A stretch of DNA of 64,000 nt, taken from a virus (Duplodnaviria > Heunggongvirae > Uroviricota > Caudoviricetes). The notes under the pieces were generated by a model, which was given only the letters and a program-made list of their open reading frames with translations, was not told the DNA's origin and ran no database searches. The first letter of the stretch is position 1; each line of letters begins with the position of its first letter. The translations under genes and the position numbers were made by a program. This document shows, piece after piece, positions 28,106 to 42,922 of the stretch. The stretch is taken from the IMG/VR virus record IMGVR_UViG_3300022178_000016, one strand, 5' to 3'.

Positions 28106-29156
28106 CAAATATCTTCAATAGTGGTCGTTAATCACTACCAGTTCTCTTATGAACTTCTCTATGTCTCCATAGAAGTTGAGACTATATCTTCTCTAGTTTA
28201 CTAGAGCCTACTGTTTCGAGTCACTTGACCCTACATGCTTACACTCATCAGCATTAGTCGTTGAGTAATACACTACCAAATGAAATTAGAAGACACATCT
28301 TTGAAAGTTCTTCTTCTTTTAATATCCCTAACTATATCCTCAGTTAATCTAGCATTCGTAGATAGCGAGAGAATATTTTTTACACTGTGACCGGAAGACA
28401 ACATATCACACACCCAATGTGCCGTGGACTTTGAGATGTTGCTACTTTTATGATTCTTAGGTATTTCTGGGAGGTCTTTCAAAATATAACCCCAGTTTTT
28501 CTTACTCTTTATATTTTTTATAGTCGCGTTAGTTACGTTGAACTCTCTCGCCAAATCAACTACAAGATAGCCGTCAAGAAGTTTCTGGTGGATAAGTAAT
28601 ACTTGACTTTCGCTCAAGAGACACCTACCGTTGCTACCTCCAACATTTGTATTAAGTCCTGTGGAAAACGCATGTTTTTGGTTTTCTTCTCTCGTAACCC
28701 ACTCCAAATTACCTTTATGGTTGTGAAGCTTATTCCCGTCCTTGTGGTTAACCTCTGGTAGATTATGGGGGTTATCTATATAACAAATTGCCACCAATCT
28801 GTGGACAAGATATTTTCTAGGGGTTCCTGTGTTGGTAACTAATTTAATACGTCTATATGTAGAACTGTCGACATGGGATTTCAATAATTTTAGTTTACCA
28901 CTCTTATCAGAGTAGACATCACCATCTTCTGTTACATAATAACTGTTTGCAAACGGAATATTTTTCATTTAAAACTCCTTACTGTATTCTGGAGATATTG
29001 TAGTGTGTTCACTGCGGATCATCTCTATTGTTGACGTTTTTACTATACCCAAGACATTATTCTTGGTGCATATATGTTATCACTAACATAAAGCAGTAGT
29101 CAACACCTAACAAGATTTTCCCGCAATTAAATAGGTTTAACGTCAGCTAACATTTT
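28106..29156 (-). mobile_element. group I intron (IA-like) carrying an HNH homing endonuclease gene in P6
   Basis: On the minus strand: 5' splice-site U.G pair GGTCAGU/GCUGAC; P element AATTGCGGGAAA (29117-29128); Q GATCCGCAGT (29011-29020); R CAACGACTAATG (28252-28263); S AAGATATAGTCTC (28178-28190); a P9 hairpin with a GAGA loop; an omega G candidate at 28106. Confidence 0.75.
28273..28968 (-). CDS. HNH homing endonuclease (NUMOD4 + HNH_3, I-HmuI-like)
   Basis: N-terminal NUMOD4-like SYYVTEDGDVYSDKSG. HNH core HRLVAICYIDNPHNLPEVNHKDGNKLHNHKGNLEWVTREEN. Own RBS AAGGAG. Confidence 0.75.
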   Translation of the reverse strand: MKNIPFANSYYVTEDGDVYSDKSGKLKLLKSHVDSSTYRRIKLVTNTGTPRKYLVHRLVAICYIDNPHNLPEVNHKDGNKLHNHKGNLEWVTREENQKHAFSTGLNTNVGGSNGRCLLSESQVLLIHQKLLDGYLVVDLAREFNVTNATIKNIKSKKNWGYILKDLPEIPKNHKSSNISKSTAHWVCDMLSSGHSVKNILSLSTNARLTEDIVRDIKRRRTFKDVSSNFIW

Positions 29157-38035: not shown

Positions 38036-39553
38036 CTAGTTATTTTGTGAATTACTTGTACCACCATCACCTGAAGATCCAGTAGCTTTCCCCGTACCTG
38101 ATCCATTTCCTTCCTCCATACCCGCACCAACTTTGGAGTCACCACCATCCAGAAGATCATATAAATCTTCTTGTTCAGTGTCTTCTGGTACACGGTAAGT
38201 GAAACCAAGTTTCTCAAGAGTTTCATTGATAACAGCAACAGTCTTGGGAATACCTTTAGTAGCAGATACTTGTTGGAATGCTTTAGCAAATTCAGAGATA
38301 GTTGTTTCAGTAACTTCACCAAATTCAAATGTAGGCATGATGTCTGTATCCCATTTATTCTCTTTAAAGATTAAAGGGACTAATTTATGGTTAAGAACAT
38401 CTTTGATTTCATTCAGGATAGAACGGATAACAATCTGTACAACTGACATCTTAGATTCAGATAGTGCAAAACTACCACCACCTGATTGACCTAATATTAG
38501 GAAGTCTGCATATAAGGCTGTTAATATTTCATTCTTGTAGCTGTCAATGATCTGTAGAACATCGTAGGACTTCTGACCTGTGGAGTTAACAATCTCAAAT
38601 TCAAACTGCTTATCTCCTTTAAGCTCATCCCTAACCATTGGTAGGATAATGCCACTCTCTTGACCCACATGTATGTTACGCATAATCTTCTTATACATTT
38701 CATACACAGCAGCATCCTCTGGTGTAGCATCTTCCAACATGTACTGGATAGGTAAGTACAAGGTTTTAAGGCCATGCACATCGCTAACAACACCATGTGC
38801 CATGTTCTCCTCATACGCAAGCTTATACTTAAAGCTCTTGTAAATAGAATTGAATGGGCTAATGCCGATAGGAGAGTCTTTTAGAGGATTGTTTCTAAAA
38901 AGAAGTAGTTTACCTAATGGAATAAATTGTTCTGTTTTAATCCCATCAGATTTAACTGGCTCAGCAGGTTGGTAAGGTCTTAAGAAGTTACCTTGCTTAC
39001 TCTGAGGTTTATTAACTAACTGCCACATACCATTAAGGTCACGGCCTTTATTCTTATAATCCCAACCCGAGATTGAATCTTGTGTTCTTAGTGAGAGTTT
39101 ACGGAGCCTGAAGTAACCATCATTATACTTACTACCCTTAGCTTTTAGTCGCTTACCTCCAACAATCTCGAAGGGGGCGTAGCCATACCAAACATAACTA
39201 AGAGCTTGTTTAATGAAGGCTAACCAAGAGTGTTCCATATCGTGTCGAAGTGTTTCTAAGTACCTAACTTGACCAGCTAAATCTTCTTCATATCCTTTAG
39301 GTGCTTTAATGTACCAAGGGACATCTGCAAGAGCAGCATTGAACATATTAACGGCTGTAGCTATTGTACTATCATGGAGCATCTTCTTGTATGTCCATAT
39401 ACAACGAGGCCACACTAACTCTGGGTTGCATTCTTCTAAAATTTGTCCAGATAAAACACTTAAACCATTGTAACCTAGCTCTCGAACACTTATACTTGAT
39501 GTTATATCAGGGTCAGCGATTGCAATAGGTGCCAACTCTTCATCTTGTGCCAT
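38036..39553 (-). CDS. portal protein (505 aa)
   Basis: Size and position downstream of the large terminase gene. Acidic Gly/Ser-rich C-terminus. Confidence 0.6.
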   Translation of the reverse strand: MAQDEELAPIAIADPDITSSISVRELGYNGLSVLSGQILEECNPELVWPRCIWTYKKMLHDSTIATAVNMFNAALADVPWYIKAPKGYEEDLAGQVRYLETLRHDMEHSWLAFIKQALSYVWYGYAPFEIVGGKRLKAKGSKYNDGYFRLRKLSLRTQDSISGWDYKNKGRDLNGMWQLVNKPQSKQGNFLRPYQPAEPVKSDGIKTEQFIPLGKLLLFRNNPLKDSPIGISPFNSIYKSFKYKLAYEENMAHGVVSDVHGLKTLYLPIQYMLEDATPEDAAVYEMYKKIMRNIHVGQESGIILPMVRDELKGDKQFEFEIVNSTGQKSYDVLQIIDSYKNEILTALYADFLILGQSGGGSFALSESKMSVVQIVIRSILNEIKDVLNHKLVPLIFKENKWDTDIMPTFEFGEVTETTISEFAKAFQQVSATKGIPKTVAVINETLEKLGFTYRVPEDTEQEDLYDLLDGGDSKVGAGMEEGNGSGTGKATGSSGDGGTSNSQNN

Positions 39554-40535
39554 ACTTGCTCCTATTGAGCTATTTGAATTAATGGATTAGAGTTGGTAAC
39601 TCTACCTGCGGAAACTCCGGCTACGAACCCACTGCTTATTTTTATTTTGGAGATTAGGTAGTTGAAACAATCGGAACAACAATCACACATCATTTATATT
39701 AAACAGAGGTCGTTACCCTCTGCCCAACTTATACTTAGTTTGACGATTAACACCACCAGCACTTTTATTCTCGAAATCAGTGACAAACATGCAAGCTTCT
39801 CGACTATAAACGTTGTTATCAGGAAACTTAAAATCTTTATCTAAATTGTACTTATCTTTACCACTGATTTGACCTTTAATCCAAAGGTCGAAATTTTCAA
39901 GTTTAGGTAGGTCGCTAAGGAAATCAGCGAAACAGTGCCATCTTACATCCACTGTCGTACCTTTCCACGCATACCCTCTAGGATCTTTCTGAGAGTAGCA
40001 GCGTTTAAACATATTAGACCACAGCTGCAAAGCTTGTTTATAGTAGGAAGGTTTATTGGGTATTTCTCCAAGAAAGCCTATGCCATGTTTATTCTTAGCA
40101 TAGAAATCTTTAACCTTCCCTGCACGTACATTATCTATATTAGCTTTACGTGTATAACCAGTATCATCGAACTGCACTATGGAAGTTTTACCTTTGACTG
40201 CAATAATCTTCCCAGAATGCCCACTGTTATTAGTGAATAACTCTGTTGAAGTTTTCCAACTGTCATCTATTTGTTTAATTAAATCGTCACACATTAAGAG
40301 ATTCCTCTAAGTTTTAAGTTGCTGCATATTGCTATGCAGATTAGACTATATCACGCTTCCTAAGAAGCCTTACTTTTTCGACTGCACTTGCAGCCTACTC
40401 TACTCCCTTCCACCTCAAGGTGTGGTTTCGATAGTCGTTACACGTTCTCATTTCTGAGCTTCGCTCGGTATTGCCCTTTACATTTGTAGAGGGTGTCCAC
40501 CGAATTTAATAAGTTTATTGACGACCTGTATTTTA
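39554..40535 (-). mobile_element. group I intron (IA-like) at 3' end of large terminase gene, with ORF in P9 extension; 3' boundary not resolved
   Basis: On the minus strand: P1 GACGAU/GUCGUC with a terminal U.G pair; a P-like AAATTCGGTGGAC (40495-40507); a Q-like AATACCGAGCG (40462-40472); a GAAA-loop hairpin; R TAACGACTATCG (40429-40440); S GATATAGTCTAA (40341-40352); P9 CTGCATA-GCAA-TATGCAG (40322-40339). Confidence 0.6.
39713..40294 (-). CDS. intron-encoded ORF, candidate homing endonuclease of unrecognised family (193 aa)
   Basis: GAGGAA RBS immediately after the intron P9 hairpin. No GIY-YIG, HNH or LAGLIDADG motif recognised. Confidence 0.5.
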   Translation of the reverse strand: MCDDLIKQIDDSWKTSTELFTNNSGHSGKIIAVKGKTSIVQFDDTGYTRKANIDNVRAGKVKDFYAKNKHGIGFLGEIPNKPSYYKQALQLWSNMFKRCYSQKDPRGYAWKGTTVDVRWHCFADFLSDLPKLENFDLWIKGQISGKDKYNLDKDFKFPDNNVYSREACMFVTDFENKSAGGVNRQTKYKLGRG

Positions 40536-41936
40536 ATCGTCATGCCCTTTACGGCCACCATCAAAAGCTTCTAACTCTTTGTAGAAGAATGTATTATCTC
40601 CGTACACTTTATCCCATAAATCAGTTGCACAACCTTTTACAACAGAAACATAACCGTTATAAGATGCAGCAGCAAACAATCTAAACCTGTCTAGCTTATT
40701 AGCAAGAGCTTTCTTAGGATAACATCTGAACCCTGCTTTAATGACCTTATTGACAAGTTCCCTACAAGCACCCTTAGAGGCTGCGTTAGGATCTTCTGGC
40801 AGTATTATATCTACCCTACTACCATCTTTAATTGCTTGATCGACAATGAACTGTTCCCATTCACCAAATTTCAAATGGGTTCGGACTACATCAAGTATTA
40901 CATACTCCCCAGATTTCTTTTTCCTACCCATCTTAACTGAGGCGAAATAGTCACACCTTCCTGCATTCGCTGCGTTAGGTATTTCCCCCGCAAAGTCATA
41001 AGCTCTCACTACTTTGTCAAAATCTGACATTGGGGGAGGTGCTAGGATTTCTTCACAGTAACTTCGTTCCCAATAACTAGAATTCATTGGTCTGGCAAAC
41101 CAATTCCCAAATAAAAGTCGCTCTTTTTCCACATGGGGGAGCATTTCGAGGTTTGATTTATAGCTTGGGTTGCTTTTCTTAAGAGATGGATTGTCGTCAA
41201 TAGTGCCAAACAACCCTTGAAAGGATATTGGTTTTATTTGGTCTGGGTGGTCGTGAGGTAATTCTGGGTTTGCATATTTATCTAGTAGTTCTTCTGCTGT
41301 GTCCCCCCAAACAACCTCACCATTAATCCTCAGAAGATAACGGATGACCCCGTTTCTTTCTGGATTAGGTCTTCCCGCTAACTCATGGCCTTCTGGGTAC
41401 AGGTACCACATTGCATATTTAAGTACCCAACTTGTTACGTCAGGGTTGCAAGAGAGCCATAAACTGTGTACATTATTTGCAGTAGATCTTAGCCGTGACC
41501 AAAGCCACCAAATATGATCTTCTTCACTGTGAGTAACTTCATCATAAAAACAATTTGAAATTTGTATTCCTTGATATAATTGGGCGGCGTTACTGTTCTC
41601 GTAGTGAGAAAAACTAACCTCAGCACCGGAAGAAAATACAATCTTCTGATCTTTCATTTTAACTTTTATTTTAGGATCATATATTCTATATAGGGCAACT
41701 GCTTCCCAAAACAAACCACCAGACTTCATAATCGCGGTAGAGTTTTTTCGGATACAGTACCCTCTGTAATTAGGATCATGAGCAAAACGTAAATGCCTCA
41801 TTAACCCAACATAACTCTTAGAACTTCCAGCTGCGCCGCCCACAAGCATTATCTGGGCATCGGACTTTAAGTATTTTTTCTGGAAGGGAGATTTAGGTGA
41901 TATTAAAGCACCCTTCTCTTCTTTCTCTGTACTCAT
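40533..41936 (-). CDS. terL: terminase large subunit (467 aa)
   Basis: Walker A LVGGAAGSSKS and Walker B CFYDEV. Nuclease-domain acidic residues in the C-terminal half. The stop codon lies inside the putative intron. Confidence 0.75.
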   Translation of the reverse strand: MSTEKEEKGALISPKSPFQKKYLKSDAQIMLVGGAAGSSKSYVGLMRHLRFAHDPNYRGYCIRKNSTAIMKSGGLFWEAVALYRIYDPKIKVKMKDQKIVFSSGAEVSFSHYENSNAAQLYQGIQISNCFYDEVTHSEEDHIWWLWSRLRSTANNVHSLWLSCNPDVTSWVLKYAMWYLYPEGHELAGRPNPERNGVIRYLLRINGEVVWGDTAEELLDKYANPELPHDHPDQIKPISFQGLFGTIDDNPSLKKSNPSYKSNLEMLPHVEKERLLFGNWFARPMNSSYWERSYCEEILAPPPMSDFDKVVRAYDFAGEIPNAANAGRCDYFASVKMGRKKKSGEYVILDVVRTHLKFGEWEQFIVDQAIKDGSRVDIILPEDPNAASKGACRELVNKVIKAGFRCYPKKALANKLDRFRLFAAASYNGYVSVVKGCATDLWDKVYGDNTFFYKELEAFDGGRKGHDD

Positions 41937-42059: not shown

Positions 42060-42674
42060 TTATTCGTCTTCGTACTCATCTTCTTCTATTTCCATAGAGA
42101 AGGCAGGTCTCACATGCTCACCCTTCGCAGCAGCCTCTTTAGCTGCTTGCACAGGATCGTTCTTAGCAACAGCTCCAATCTCTTCAGCTTTCTTCTGACT
42201 AACCGCCAAGGCTATCTTACGTTGCTTACTTTCTTCAATAGCTTTCTTCAAAGCAATATCTTGACTAACAACCCATTTAGCAATCTCCACACGAGTTTTA
42301 GAAACAGGTACATATCTAATCAATACTTCAACCAGAAGTTGTTCTGAGATAACCTTACCATTAGAATCTAACTTCTCAGGTTCTACTTCCACTATCTCAA
42401 ACTTAGCTGATTTACTCTTATGTAATATCCCTTGCTTCTCTTCTGGGGTTCCTTCCCACACTTCCATCTCTGGAACCAAACCACCAATCAAAGCTTTCTT
42501 AATAATCTCTGAGGCTGGTTCTGTGAGGTCTGCAATCTTCCTAGCTACTGTTCCCATACCTTTAGACATACGAGGGACACCAGCACCAGTGTTCTTATTA
42601 GGGCTTGCATTATGTTCTGCTAGAGCCTTCTGTTGCTTCTCAGCTTGGGCTTTAGTTAATCTTGGCGATGGCAT
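42060..42674 (-). CDS. terminase small subunit candidate (204 aa)
   Basis: Directly upstream of terL. A basic N-terminus and an acidic C-terminal tail (EIEEDEYEDE). Confidence 0.4.
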   Translation of the reverse strand: MPSPRLTKAQAEKQQKALAEHNASPNKNTGAGVPRMSKGMGTVARKIADLTEPASEIIKKALIGGLVPEMEVWEGTPEEKQGILHKSKSAKFEIVEVEPEKLDSNGKVISEQLLVEVLIRYVPVSKTRVEIAKWVVSQDIALKKAIEESKQRKIALAVSQKKAEEIGAVAKNDPVQAAKEAAAKGEHVRPAFSMEIEEDEYEDE

Positions 42675-42694: not shown

Positions 42695-42743
42695 AGAAAT
42701 AAATAACCCCTCAAGGTTGCGCATCGTTGATAGGCGTGAGGGG
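42695..42743 (-). terminator. rho-independent terminator downstream of tRNA
   Basis: CCCCUCA...UGAGGGG stem followed by UUAUUUAUUU on the minus strand. Confidence 0.5.
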
Positions 42744-42846: not shown

Positions 42847-42922
42847 TGGCCAGCTACTAAGGAGTCGAACCTCAAACCGCTGGTTTTGGAGACCAGTGCT
42901 CTACCAATTGAGCTAGTAACTG
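42847..42922 (-). tRNA. tRNA-Trp (anticodon CCA)
   Basis: Cloverleaf folded by hand: acceptor CAGUUAC/GUAGCUG, D arm GCUC-AAUUGGUA-GAGC, anticodon loop CUCCAAA, T arm UGAGG-UUCGACU-CCUUA, discriminator G and an encoded CCA. Confidence 0.8.

Follow-up and report, generated by a model that had tools for sequence, protein, structure and literature searches.

A group I intron with a homing-endonuclease-like gene in the large terminase gene of a tailed virus

The large terminase gene (terL) in IMG/VR virus record IMGVR_UViG_3300022178_000016 (Caudoviricetes), a stretch of 64,000 nucleotides (nt) referred to here as the window, is very probably split by an 845-nt group I intron that lies 42 codons before the end of the gene and carries a homing-endonuclease-like gene inside it. 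The minus strand carries all genes in this part of the window, in the order terL, an open reading frame (ORF) of 193 amino acids (aa), an ORF of 43 aa and the portal gene. Read literally, the locus gives a terminase of 467 aa without the end of its nuclease domain and an orphan 43-aa ORF, while the true product would be a TerL protein of 509 aa obtained by splicing. An earlier note on this DNA, made from its letters, had proposed a group I intron in terL with an ORF in the extension after P9; this was borne out, and the helices it named are essentially right. The interval that it gave for the intron, 39554-40535, does cover the intron at 39691-40535, but it also takes in the second terL exon and the 8-nt gap before the portal gene.

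Splice Junctions and the Restored Terminase Frame

In three isolate relatives that lack the intron (phiPMW, vB_PsaM_M1 and SYP; 53-55% identical), TerL runs 37-39 residues past GHDD or GHED, reading GHDD-IC-DA-ISDAIGILAQR...TPF, with the portal gene starting about 9-15 nt further on. Exon 1 of the window's TerL is 52-55% identical to these proteins, and the frame of the 43-aa ORF, which reads MCDCCSDCFNYLISKIK...NPLIQIAQ and then stops, aligns with their tails. Joining GAU (40538..40536) to AUG (39690..39688), so that GAU is followed by AUG UGU GAU, yields a 509-aa TerL that aligns gap-free across the junction to phiPMW TerL, to residue 490/492. The score against Pfam Terminase_6C is 17.5 bits for the unspliced protein (below cutoff, profile positions 2-143) and 23.7 bits for the spliced one (above cutoff, positions 2-153 of 155).

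Decisive for the intron boundaries is the sequence of an intron-less metagenomic allele (L133), whose TerL (P0282) is 90% identical to that of the window and runs unbroken as ...GHDD/MCDCCSDCFNYL..., ...GRKGHDDMCDCCSDCFNYLISKI... and ...GGRKGHDDMCDCCSDCFNYLISKI... (here and below, a slash inside a sequence marks the insertion point or junction). At the junction this protein is identical to the spliced TerL of the window (...GHDDMCDCCSDCFNYLISKI..., ...ELEAFDGGRKGHDDMCDCCSDCFNYLISKI...), and the underlying DNA, CATGACGAC/ATGTGCGAC and ...CATGACGAC/ATGTGCGACTGT..., meets window positions 40536 and 39690 with zero gap and zero overlap; the intron-less site in L133 3880-3930 reads ...GGACATGACGACATGTGCGACTGTTGC... 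Since the L133 DNA abuts both positions exactly, the intron is placed at 40535..39691, is 845 nt long and ends in G39691, with exon 2 at 39690..39562. The predicted ligated junction is ...CATGACGAT/ATGTGTGAT..., and the omega-G, G39691, stands directly before exon 2 at a junction that abuts the intron-less allele. Placing the 3' splice site behind the second ATG (39688) was also considered, but rejected: it would remove the Met from the HDD-MC-DC alignment, weaken P10 and contradict the intron-less allele.

These boundaries alter the earlier picture, in which the intron sat at the extreme 3' end of terL, exon 2 supplied a few codons or only a stop and the insertion point was an unusual terminal one. 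The insertion lies 42 codons from the end, and exon 2 (39690..39562) comprises 42 codons and a stop and provides the last 42 residues of TerL. Nor do the intron-less relatives compared end at GHDD or GHED; their C-termini all continue past it, by 37-39 residues in the isolates. The interrupted motif is the conserved H-D-D/x-x-D of the terminase's RNase-H-like nuclease domain (GHDD-MC-DC... after splicing), and a codon in a conserved catalytic motif is a classic homing target.

For the Asp codon that precedes the insertion, the intron-less L133 (3895..3905, compared with window 40536) uses GAC and all 29 aligned intron-bearing alleles (29/29) use GAU, whose U the wobble pair at the 5' splice site demands.

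Intron Fold and Covariation

At the curated gathering thresholds of Rfam no intron was reported anywhere in the window, and E-value mode alone revealed the one in terL. In this mode RF00028 matches 40575..40322 over the whole model length (E 9.4e-10 local, 4e-8 for 64 kb), so that the group I scan proposed in the earlier note did return a match, at 44.7 bits and below the gathering score of 50. Homologous introns in four related contigs all exceed that cutoff (L009 62.7, L011 59.2, L010 56 and L004 53.3 bits). In the window's match the extended P7.1 region stays outside the alignment as an insertion, which may have lowered the score.

A scan of viral contigs with the core pattern gave 116 stretches, from which an alignment (A3) of 29 distinct cores with a GACGAU 5' exon was built. 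RNAalifold predicts P1, P3, P4, P5, P6, P6a, P7.2, P8 and P9 on these 29 copies, with compensatory changes in 27/48 pairs. Pairs were then recounted with P7 added as a pseudoknot, with shuffled alignments and partners slid by 1-3 columns as controls. Standard pairs occupy 97.6% of 1502 cells, compared with 81% after shuffling and 32-41% after sliding, and compensatory changes are found in 27/53 pairs; the covariation score of 0.452 (0.144 for shuffles) was reached by 0/500 shuffles. Changes on both sides of a helix occur in P3, P5, P6, P6a, P7.2, P8 and P9. P7 (GACUAU with AUAGUC) pairs in 29/29 copies without any variation, so that covariation speaks neither for nor against it.

At the 5' end, the sequence confirms the pairing of GACGAU with GUCGUC that the earlier note described; the terminal U.G is present in every aligned copy (29/29), and covariation is seen in the outer pairs of P1 (UA 16, AU 8, GC 2, CG 1). 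Likewise, the terL stop UAA does lie in P1 and forms the first three intron bases (40535..40533), the P-like and Q-like elements correspond to P4 and the R and S elements to P7, and the P9 hairpin is present at 40338..40323. P10 shows a compensatory change in L004, where guide AUGUA and exon 2 AUAUGU replace a G-C of the window by A-U; comparable pairings are readable in L009, L010, L012, L016, L022, L026 and L067.

The 3' end is equally regular. Every copy ends in a covarying hairpin of 6-7 bp with the loop xUAACGAx, then 11-13 nt, then G/exon 2, and the start of exon 2 always lies two codons before a conserved Asp (GAY) whose next codon is usually GCN (Ala). The loop is kept in more than 15 distinct copies, ORF-less introns included. 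The same terL codon holds such ORF-less introns in L022, L053, L073, L120 and L130. They share the 3' hairpin and a junction of the G/CAGGUUGAUGC type, and their hairpin follows about 20-30 nt past P9, which marks the ORF as an insert in the stretch linking P9 to the hairpin.

As to the loop itself, it was seen in the window and in L004, L009-L012, L016, L022, L026, L032, L040, L053, L054, L067, L073, L120 and L130, and where an intron ORF exists it always carries the stop codon of that ORF. The loop, (G/C/A/U)UAACGA(C/A), repeats the 8 nt GUAACGAC that lead into P7, and the ACGA within the loop could pair with UCGU of the P1 guide.

The Intron-Encoded Protein

The GAGGAA ribosome-binding site and the 193-aa ORF at 40294..39713 stand as the earlier note described them. 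The statement that the ORF has no recognisable nuclease motifs fared less evenly: searches of Pfam, NCBIfam and the sequences in PDB gave zero informative matches for the window's protein, and no LAGLIDADG, GIY-YIG, canonical HNH or PD-(D/E)xK signature was found in it, but it belongs to a large known family, phrog_2081, and has a homologue in gp59 of phage ICP1. The suggestion of an undescribed homing-endonuclease family is likewise superseded, as the ORF is one of the short forms in a family of thousands of proteins, labelled HNH endonuclease by PHROGs and RefSeq, of which gp59 has been named 'IPA-HNH' (PMC10448857). A PDB search with a 30-sequence family profile returned noise only, and Pfam searches with 30 family members and 10 long relatives gave no informative domain, the one match stemming from a gene call that also took in a thymidylate synthase exon.

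The match to phrog_2081 ('HNH endonuclease'; E 1.8e-39) covers profile positions 28-203 of 433 only, and in a 2025 survey InterPro recognised only DNA-binding domains in the phrog_2081 proteins of Bacillus phage introns (PMC11878797); the part homologous to the window's ORF is therefore an unassigned N-terminal module. The 193-aa protein has 76 close homologues, and searches for the wider family matched 11,187 cluster representatives (E <= 1e-3) and, with tblastn, 990 phage records. ICP1 ORF59 (gp59) is among these records and aligns to residues 20-173 by BLASTP (31% identity, E 1e-19, 165 columns).

Confident AlphaFold (AF2) models, with a pLDDT of 89.6 over the full protein and of 86.8 over residues 78-193, predict an SH3/Tudor-like barrel (14-57), helices (85-144) and a strand-strand-helix unit (149-191). 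The family signature comprises W92, R98-C99-Y100, W119, F125, D128, L151-D-K-D154, Y163-S164, C168 and N176; Lys153 is present in 230/239 aligned domains, N176 is invariant and the predicted beta-beta-alpha unit has no conserved His. The spacing of 23 residues between D152/K153 and N176 resembles the D-H ... N spacing of HNH enzymes, and K153 may occupy the general-base position. Longer family members carry AP2/NUMOD DNA-binding tails, and a short form of 172-193 aa is common among the homologues, in which some 25 residues are invariant, LDKD and N176 among them. A pseudogene origin, by truncation of a 433-aa phrog_2081 protein, was considered for the ORF and rejected, because proteins of 172-193 aa are common and their conservation extends to the C-terminus.

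Like I-HmuI and I-BasI, canonical intron endonucleases of the His-Me finger (HNH) type (HNH_3, PF13392), the protein is encoded in a phage group I intron and has a predicted C-terminal beta-beta-alpha unit (149-191); unlike them, it has no HNH_3 profile match, and Lys takes the place of the expected general-base His in more than 95% of the family members examined. ICP1 gp59, gp115 and gp209 are IPA-HNH homing endonuclease genes (HEGs), a class abundant in Flaumdraviruses, that is, the KIL phages (Barth et al. 2023, PMC10448857). The N-terminal module of gp59 is homologous to the window's ORF and shares with it W..M..RCY, W, LDKD and VY..E.C, and IPA-HNH members adjoin or sit within essential phage genes, as the window's ORF does. 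They differ in that the window's protein stops past the putative nuclease module where IPA-HNH has an AP2/NUMOD/wHTH tail, and in that it is intron-encoded and gp59 free-standing. The HNH superfamily assignment of IPA-HNH rests on HHsearch (PMC10448857) and was irreproducible here against the HNH_3 alignment; for the 193-aa protein we regard HNH membership as unproven. The protein is most likely a site-specific DNA endonuclease.

Distribution of the Intron and Its ORF

A megablast of the region against 50,697 phage records gave no match. At the level of proteins and intron cores, the same element is found in KIL1-5 (vB_PsyM_KIL1-5, Flaumdravirus, NC_042054) and in about 30 metagenomic or viral contigs, which have the same GACGAU 5' exon and guide, the same core blocks (CAAUACCGAGC, GUGUAACGACUAU, GAUAGUCU), the same 3' UAACGA hairpin and the same terL codon, with TerL proteins about 40-65% identical to that of the window. 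In Pseudomonas phage KIL4, whose ORF is of the same family and 51% identical, terL reads KDD/QVDATSDAF at this codon, compared with HDD/MCDCCSDCF in the window. The arrangement of terL, a gap of about 230 nt, the ORF and the next gene recurs in KIL4 and in L004 (ORF 88% identical), L007 (98%), L009, L010 and L011. L010 and L011 encode a T7-type terminase (RHDD/RLDALYGAV), so that the same codon is struck in T4-type and T7-type terminases.

Among introns of this core type the ORF family is strictly associated with GACGAU sites, being present in 28/39 introns at such sites and in 0/81 at other sites, a pattern among non-independent contigs and not a statistical test. Together with the recurrence at one codon of unrelated terminases, this distribution is the best indirect evidence that the ORF product acts as a nuclease. 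One intron lineage on a conserved nuclease-motif codon in two terminase families is an instance of homing elements exploiting invariant coding sequence, and offers a possible route for gene exchange or competition among co-infecting phages.

A second terL site with the same core and the same P1 of GACGAU and GUCGUC looks like the ATPase Walker B motif (...LLIADD/ in L029, L076, L091 and L121; ...LLIPDD/ in L042, L057 and L102). More distant members of the ORF family (E ~1e-41) accompany some of these introns, and in L029, L076 and L091 the downstream HDD motif is uninterrupted. In L008 (4738..5100), an 88-kb contig, a free-standing 245-aa homologue of the ORF ends at the start of terL, which itself appears split at Walker A (...VLFGG / ...AAGSGKSY...) by an intron-like stretch of about 250 nt with no Rfam match at E <= 0.1.

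Proposed Mechanism

The terL pre-mRNA would be transcribed through the element and fold into an IA-type core, in which the last six bases of exon 1, GACGAU, pair with GUCGUC to form P1; guanosine-initiated self-splicing, helped by P10, would then give a ligated mRNA for the full-length 509-aa TerL. On unspliced RNA, translation would end at the UAA that opens the intron, giving a product without the last 42 residues, and DNA packaging should therefore depend on splicing. The ORF would be translated from its own ribosome-binding site in the linker between P9 and the hairpin. In a mixed infection, its product most probably cuts or nicks intron-less terL near ...CAUGACGA(C/U)/AUGUG..., around the HDD codon, after which recombinational repair would copy the intron and ORF into the cut allele (homing).

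More tentatively, and with some doubt, the 193-aa protein could represent a minimal nuclease class in which an SH3-like barrel and a helical W..M..RCY/W..F..F..D module precede a beta-beta-alpha unit with L-D-K-D...N, and in which Lys replaces the catalytic His of His-Me finger enzymes or the chemistry is another altogether. Its target might be the DNA for the universally conserved H-D-D/x-x-D-A nuclease motif of large terminases, and a single intron/HEG lineage could in this way move among the T4-type and T7-type terminase genes of unrelated phages.

Weighing the Alternatives

Taken as a whole, the reading of a mobile intron in terL, a spliced TerL and an ORF product that acts as a homing endonuclease is held with high confidence, and several observations weigh against it. 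Splicing is predicted from the DNA sequence, the window's copy falls short of the RF00028 gathering score (44.7 bits vs 50), and P4 and P7 are invariant in the alignment, so that covariation is uninformative for both. Concerning the ORF, a scan for sigma-70 promoters and terminators gave no promoter-like site for it on the minus strand, no canonical nuclease profile (Pfam, NCBIfam, PDB) matches it, and Lys (LDKD) is found where the catalytic His is expected. Alignments of the family with the HNH_3/NUMOD4 alignment by hhalign were negative with multiple sequence alignments of 30 and of 228 sequences (probability 0.2-0.3%), and the ORF ends at residue 193, right past the predicted beta-beta-alpha unit, with no AP2/NUMOD match in Pfam.

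Part of these observations would also fit an intron that splices but whose ORF is an inactive, decayed or domesticated DNA-binding remnant, the element persisting by vertical descent only. The missing catalytic His and HNH profile, the match limited to positions 28-203 of the 433-position phrog_2081 profile and the lack of the AP2/NUMOD tails of longer relatives all agree with such a remnant, and domestication of HEG-like genes in phages is documented (PMC10448857). We nevertheless consider it unlikely. The widespread 172-193-aa form, with its approximately 25 invariant residues including LDKD and N176, points to purifying selection, and the frame is intact in copies at 88% and 98% identity. 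Moreover, the presence of the ORF at the same codon of T4-type and T7-type terminases and at the second GACGAU site in terL is hard to account for without recent site-specific mobility.

That no splicing takes place is very improbable. On this account terL would be a gene in pieces, interrupted by a free-standing endonuclease gene, with the 467-aa TerL and a 43-aa peptide assembling or the peptide being dispensable, and the RNA features would be the relic of a dead intron. The 43-aa ORF (39693..39562) indeed has its own ATG, the window's copy lies below the Rfam cutoff, and functional split genes that arose from homing-endonuclease insertion are known, as far as a citation of them in PMC5418858 indicates. 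A dead relic is, however, at odds with the compensatory changes that maintain all core helices in 29 copies and with the conserved and covarying omega-G, U.G pair and P10; ORF-less intron copies at the same codon are inexplicable by a free-standing gene, and in L004 there is no upstream ATG (CTTG/ATA...), so that exon 2 is without a start codon there.

Hardly any credence is given to the idea, raised by the earlier note and drawing nothing from the tools applied here, that the ORF product is mainly a maturase that aids folding of the intron and is not a DNA endonuclease. Maturase activity does occur in some LAGLIDADG proteins of organellar group I introns. The window's protein shows no LAGLIDADG or RNA-binding match or signature, and ORF-less copies persist in the essential terL, so that the fold is independent of the protein. 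In addition, family members are often free-standing beside intron-less genes, such as ICP1 gp59 after the DNA polymerase gene and the homologue upstream of terL in L008.

Comparison with Known Terminase Introns

The intron in the window resembles phage IA introns in its core of the self-splicing type from P1 to P10 including P7.1/P7.2, in its position at a conserved motif of an essential DNA-metabolism or packaging gene, in the homing-endonuclease-like ORF that has its own ribosome-binding site outside the core, and in the in-frame stop directly past the 5' splice site. Placement of the ORF after P9 is the arrangement of the T4 nrdD/sunY type.

Group I introns in terL, with or without HEGs, have been shown by reverse-transcription PCR in Bastillevirinae (PMC11878797), Shewanella phage KASIA (PMC8541194) and ICP1 (PMC10448857). 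What sets the window's intron apart from these is its insertion codon, which follows H-D-D in the nuclease domain of TerL and leaves 42 codons to the end. The ICP1 intron lies near the N-terminus, with the HEG outside it (PMC10448857), and the ORFs of the Bastillevirinae terL introns belong to phrog_559 (Vsr-like), not phrog_2081 (PMC11878797).

Known, then, are group I introns in terL, the ORF family, which has been described bioinformatically, and the same intron in KIL genomes, where it is unannotated. The terL intron is a real but ordinary mobile element of a kind often missed by annotation. Its points of interest are modest: a target codon shared by T4-type and T7-type terminases, a minimal His-less HEG and the fact that annotation missed the element. 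The ORF family counts more than 11,000 cluster representatives, lacks a conserved catalytic His and has neither a Pfam model nor a solved structure; its short intron-borne form, the target of which is known (the intron-less L133), would lend itself well to characterisation.

The same mis-annotation is found in public isolate genomes, where KIL4 terL is truncated and Vi06 gene 19 is treated as a pseudogene. In the KIL4 record (L012, NC_042054; 3286..4070) the intron is unannotated, terL is called as a truncated coding sequence (CDS) that ends at KDD and a stop, the ORF is an 'HNH endonuclease' or 'hypothetical protein', and the portal gene is joined in the annotation. In Salmonella phage Vi06 (L132, NC_015271; 1627..4221), gene 19 is a pseudogene-like misc_feature split by an 'HNH endonuclease' CDS, which is a homologue of the ORF.

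Table 1. Features of the terL locus in the window and of the intron
Feature	Coordinates	Strand	Description and basis
terL ORF as called	41936..40533	-	467 aa, end ...GGRKGHDD and stop (ORF list)
terL exon 1	40536..41936	-	467 codons, end ...GGRKGHDD, last codon GAU; ORF list, Pfam Terminase_6N, phrog_979
Group I intron	39691..40535	-	845 nt, IA-like (P7.1/P7.2 present, no P2); starts UAA..., ends ...AAAUG, omega-G = 39691
P1	40520..40541	-	5' exon GACGAU (40541..40536) with guide GUCGUC (40525..40520); U40536.G40525 wobble = 5' splice site
P10, guide part	40527..40531	-	AUACA, pairs with exon 2 +2..+6 UGUGU (39689..39685)
P3	40513..40508 / 40374..40369	-	Alignment A3, RNAalifold and pair counts
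P4	40503..40498 / 40470..40465	-	UCGGUG / UACCGA; alignment A3
P5, P6, P6a (GAAA loop), P7.1/P7.2	within core 40323..40513	-	Alignment A3
P7	40436..40431 / 40349..40344	-	GACUAU / AUAGUC; predicted pseudoknot with P3
P8	40368..40355	-	Alignment A3
P9	40338..40323	-	CUGCAUA-GCAA-UAUGCAG, GCAA loop
Shine-Dalgarno sequence	40302..40307	-	GAGGAA, 7 nt before the ORF start; equivalent AUAGGAGAAUUUCUAUG context conserved in relatives
Intron ORF	39713..40294	-	193 aa; putative homing endonuclease, phrog_2081 / 'IPA-HNH' family; no AP2/NUMOD tail
3' hairpin	39704..39722	-	CAGAGG-GUAACGA-CCUCUG; loop holds the ORF stop UAA (39715..39713)
3' tail	39691..39703	-	UUUAAUAUAAAUG; ends in omega-G 39691, 3' splice site next; 11-13 nt from hairpin to G/exon 2 in all relatives
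43-aa ORF	39693..39562	-	Own ATG (ORF list)
terL exon 2	39562..39690	-	MCDCCSDCFNYLISKIKISSGFVAGVSAGRVTNSNPLIQIAQ and stop, 42 codons + stop; translation, phiPMW alignment, P0282 junction
Portal gene	39553..38036	-	ATG at 39553, 8 nt past terL exon 2; uninterrupted in the window

Other Elements

The portal gene, which is uninterrupted in the window, contains group I intron matches in related contigs (L008 7126..7455, 91.8 bits; L009 4002..4356, 70.6 bits). Upstream of terL, the 204-aa ORF at 42674..42060, which precedes it, has no PHROG match at E <= 0.001; just upstream of this ORF, within 42706..42743 and 42850..42922 on the minus strand, lie a tRNA (61.7 bits) and, about 100 nt downstream of the tRNA, a match to the Rfam abiF RNA motif (RF03085, 41.9 bits vs a cutoff of 37).

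A second group I intron (28106..29156, minus strand), presumably the one that the earlier note counted as the first, splits the tape-measure gene of the window. It has an RF00028 match at 28381..28157 (31.5 bits, E 3.5e-4) and contains a canonical ORF of the HNH_3 type (28968..28273, phrog_59), and the ORFs that flank it match the adjoining positions 269-601 and 602-767 of phrog_2335. By eye, its 5' splice site would lie after U29157 (GUCAGU with GCUGAC) and its 3' splice site after G28106, giving ...KGQ-L-AENLPG..., and the intron ends with a hairpin like that of the terL intron, with a UAACGA loop (about 28140..28120).

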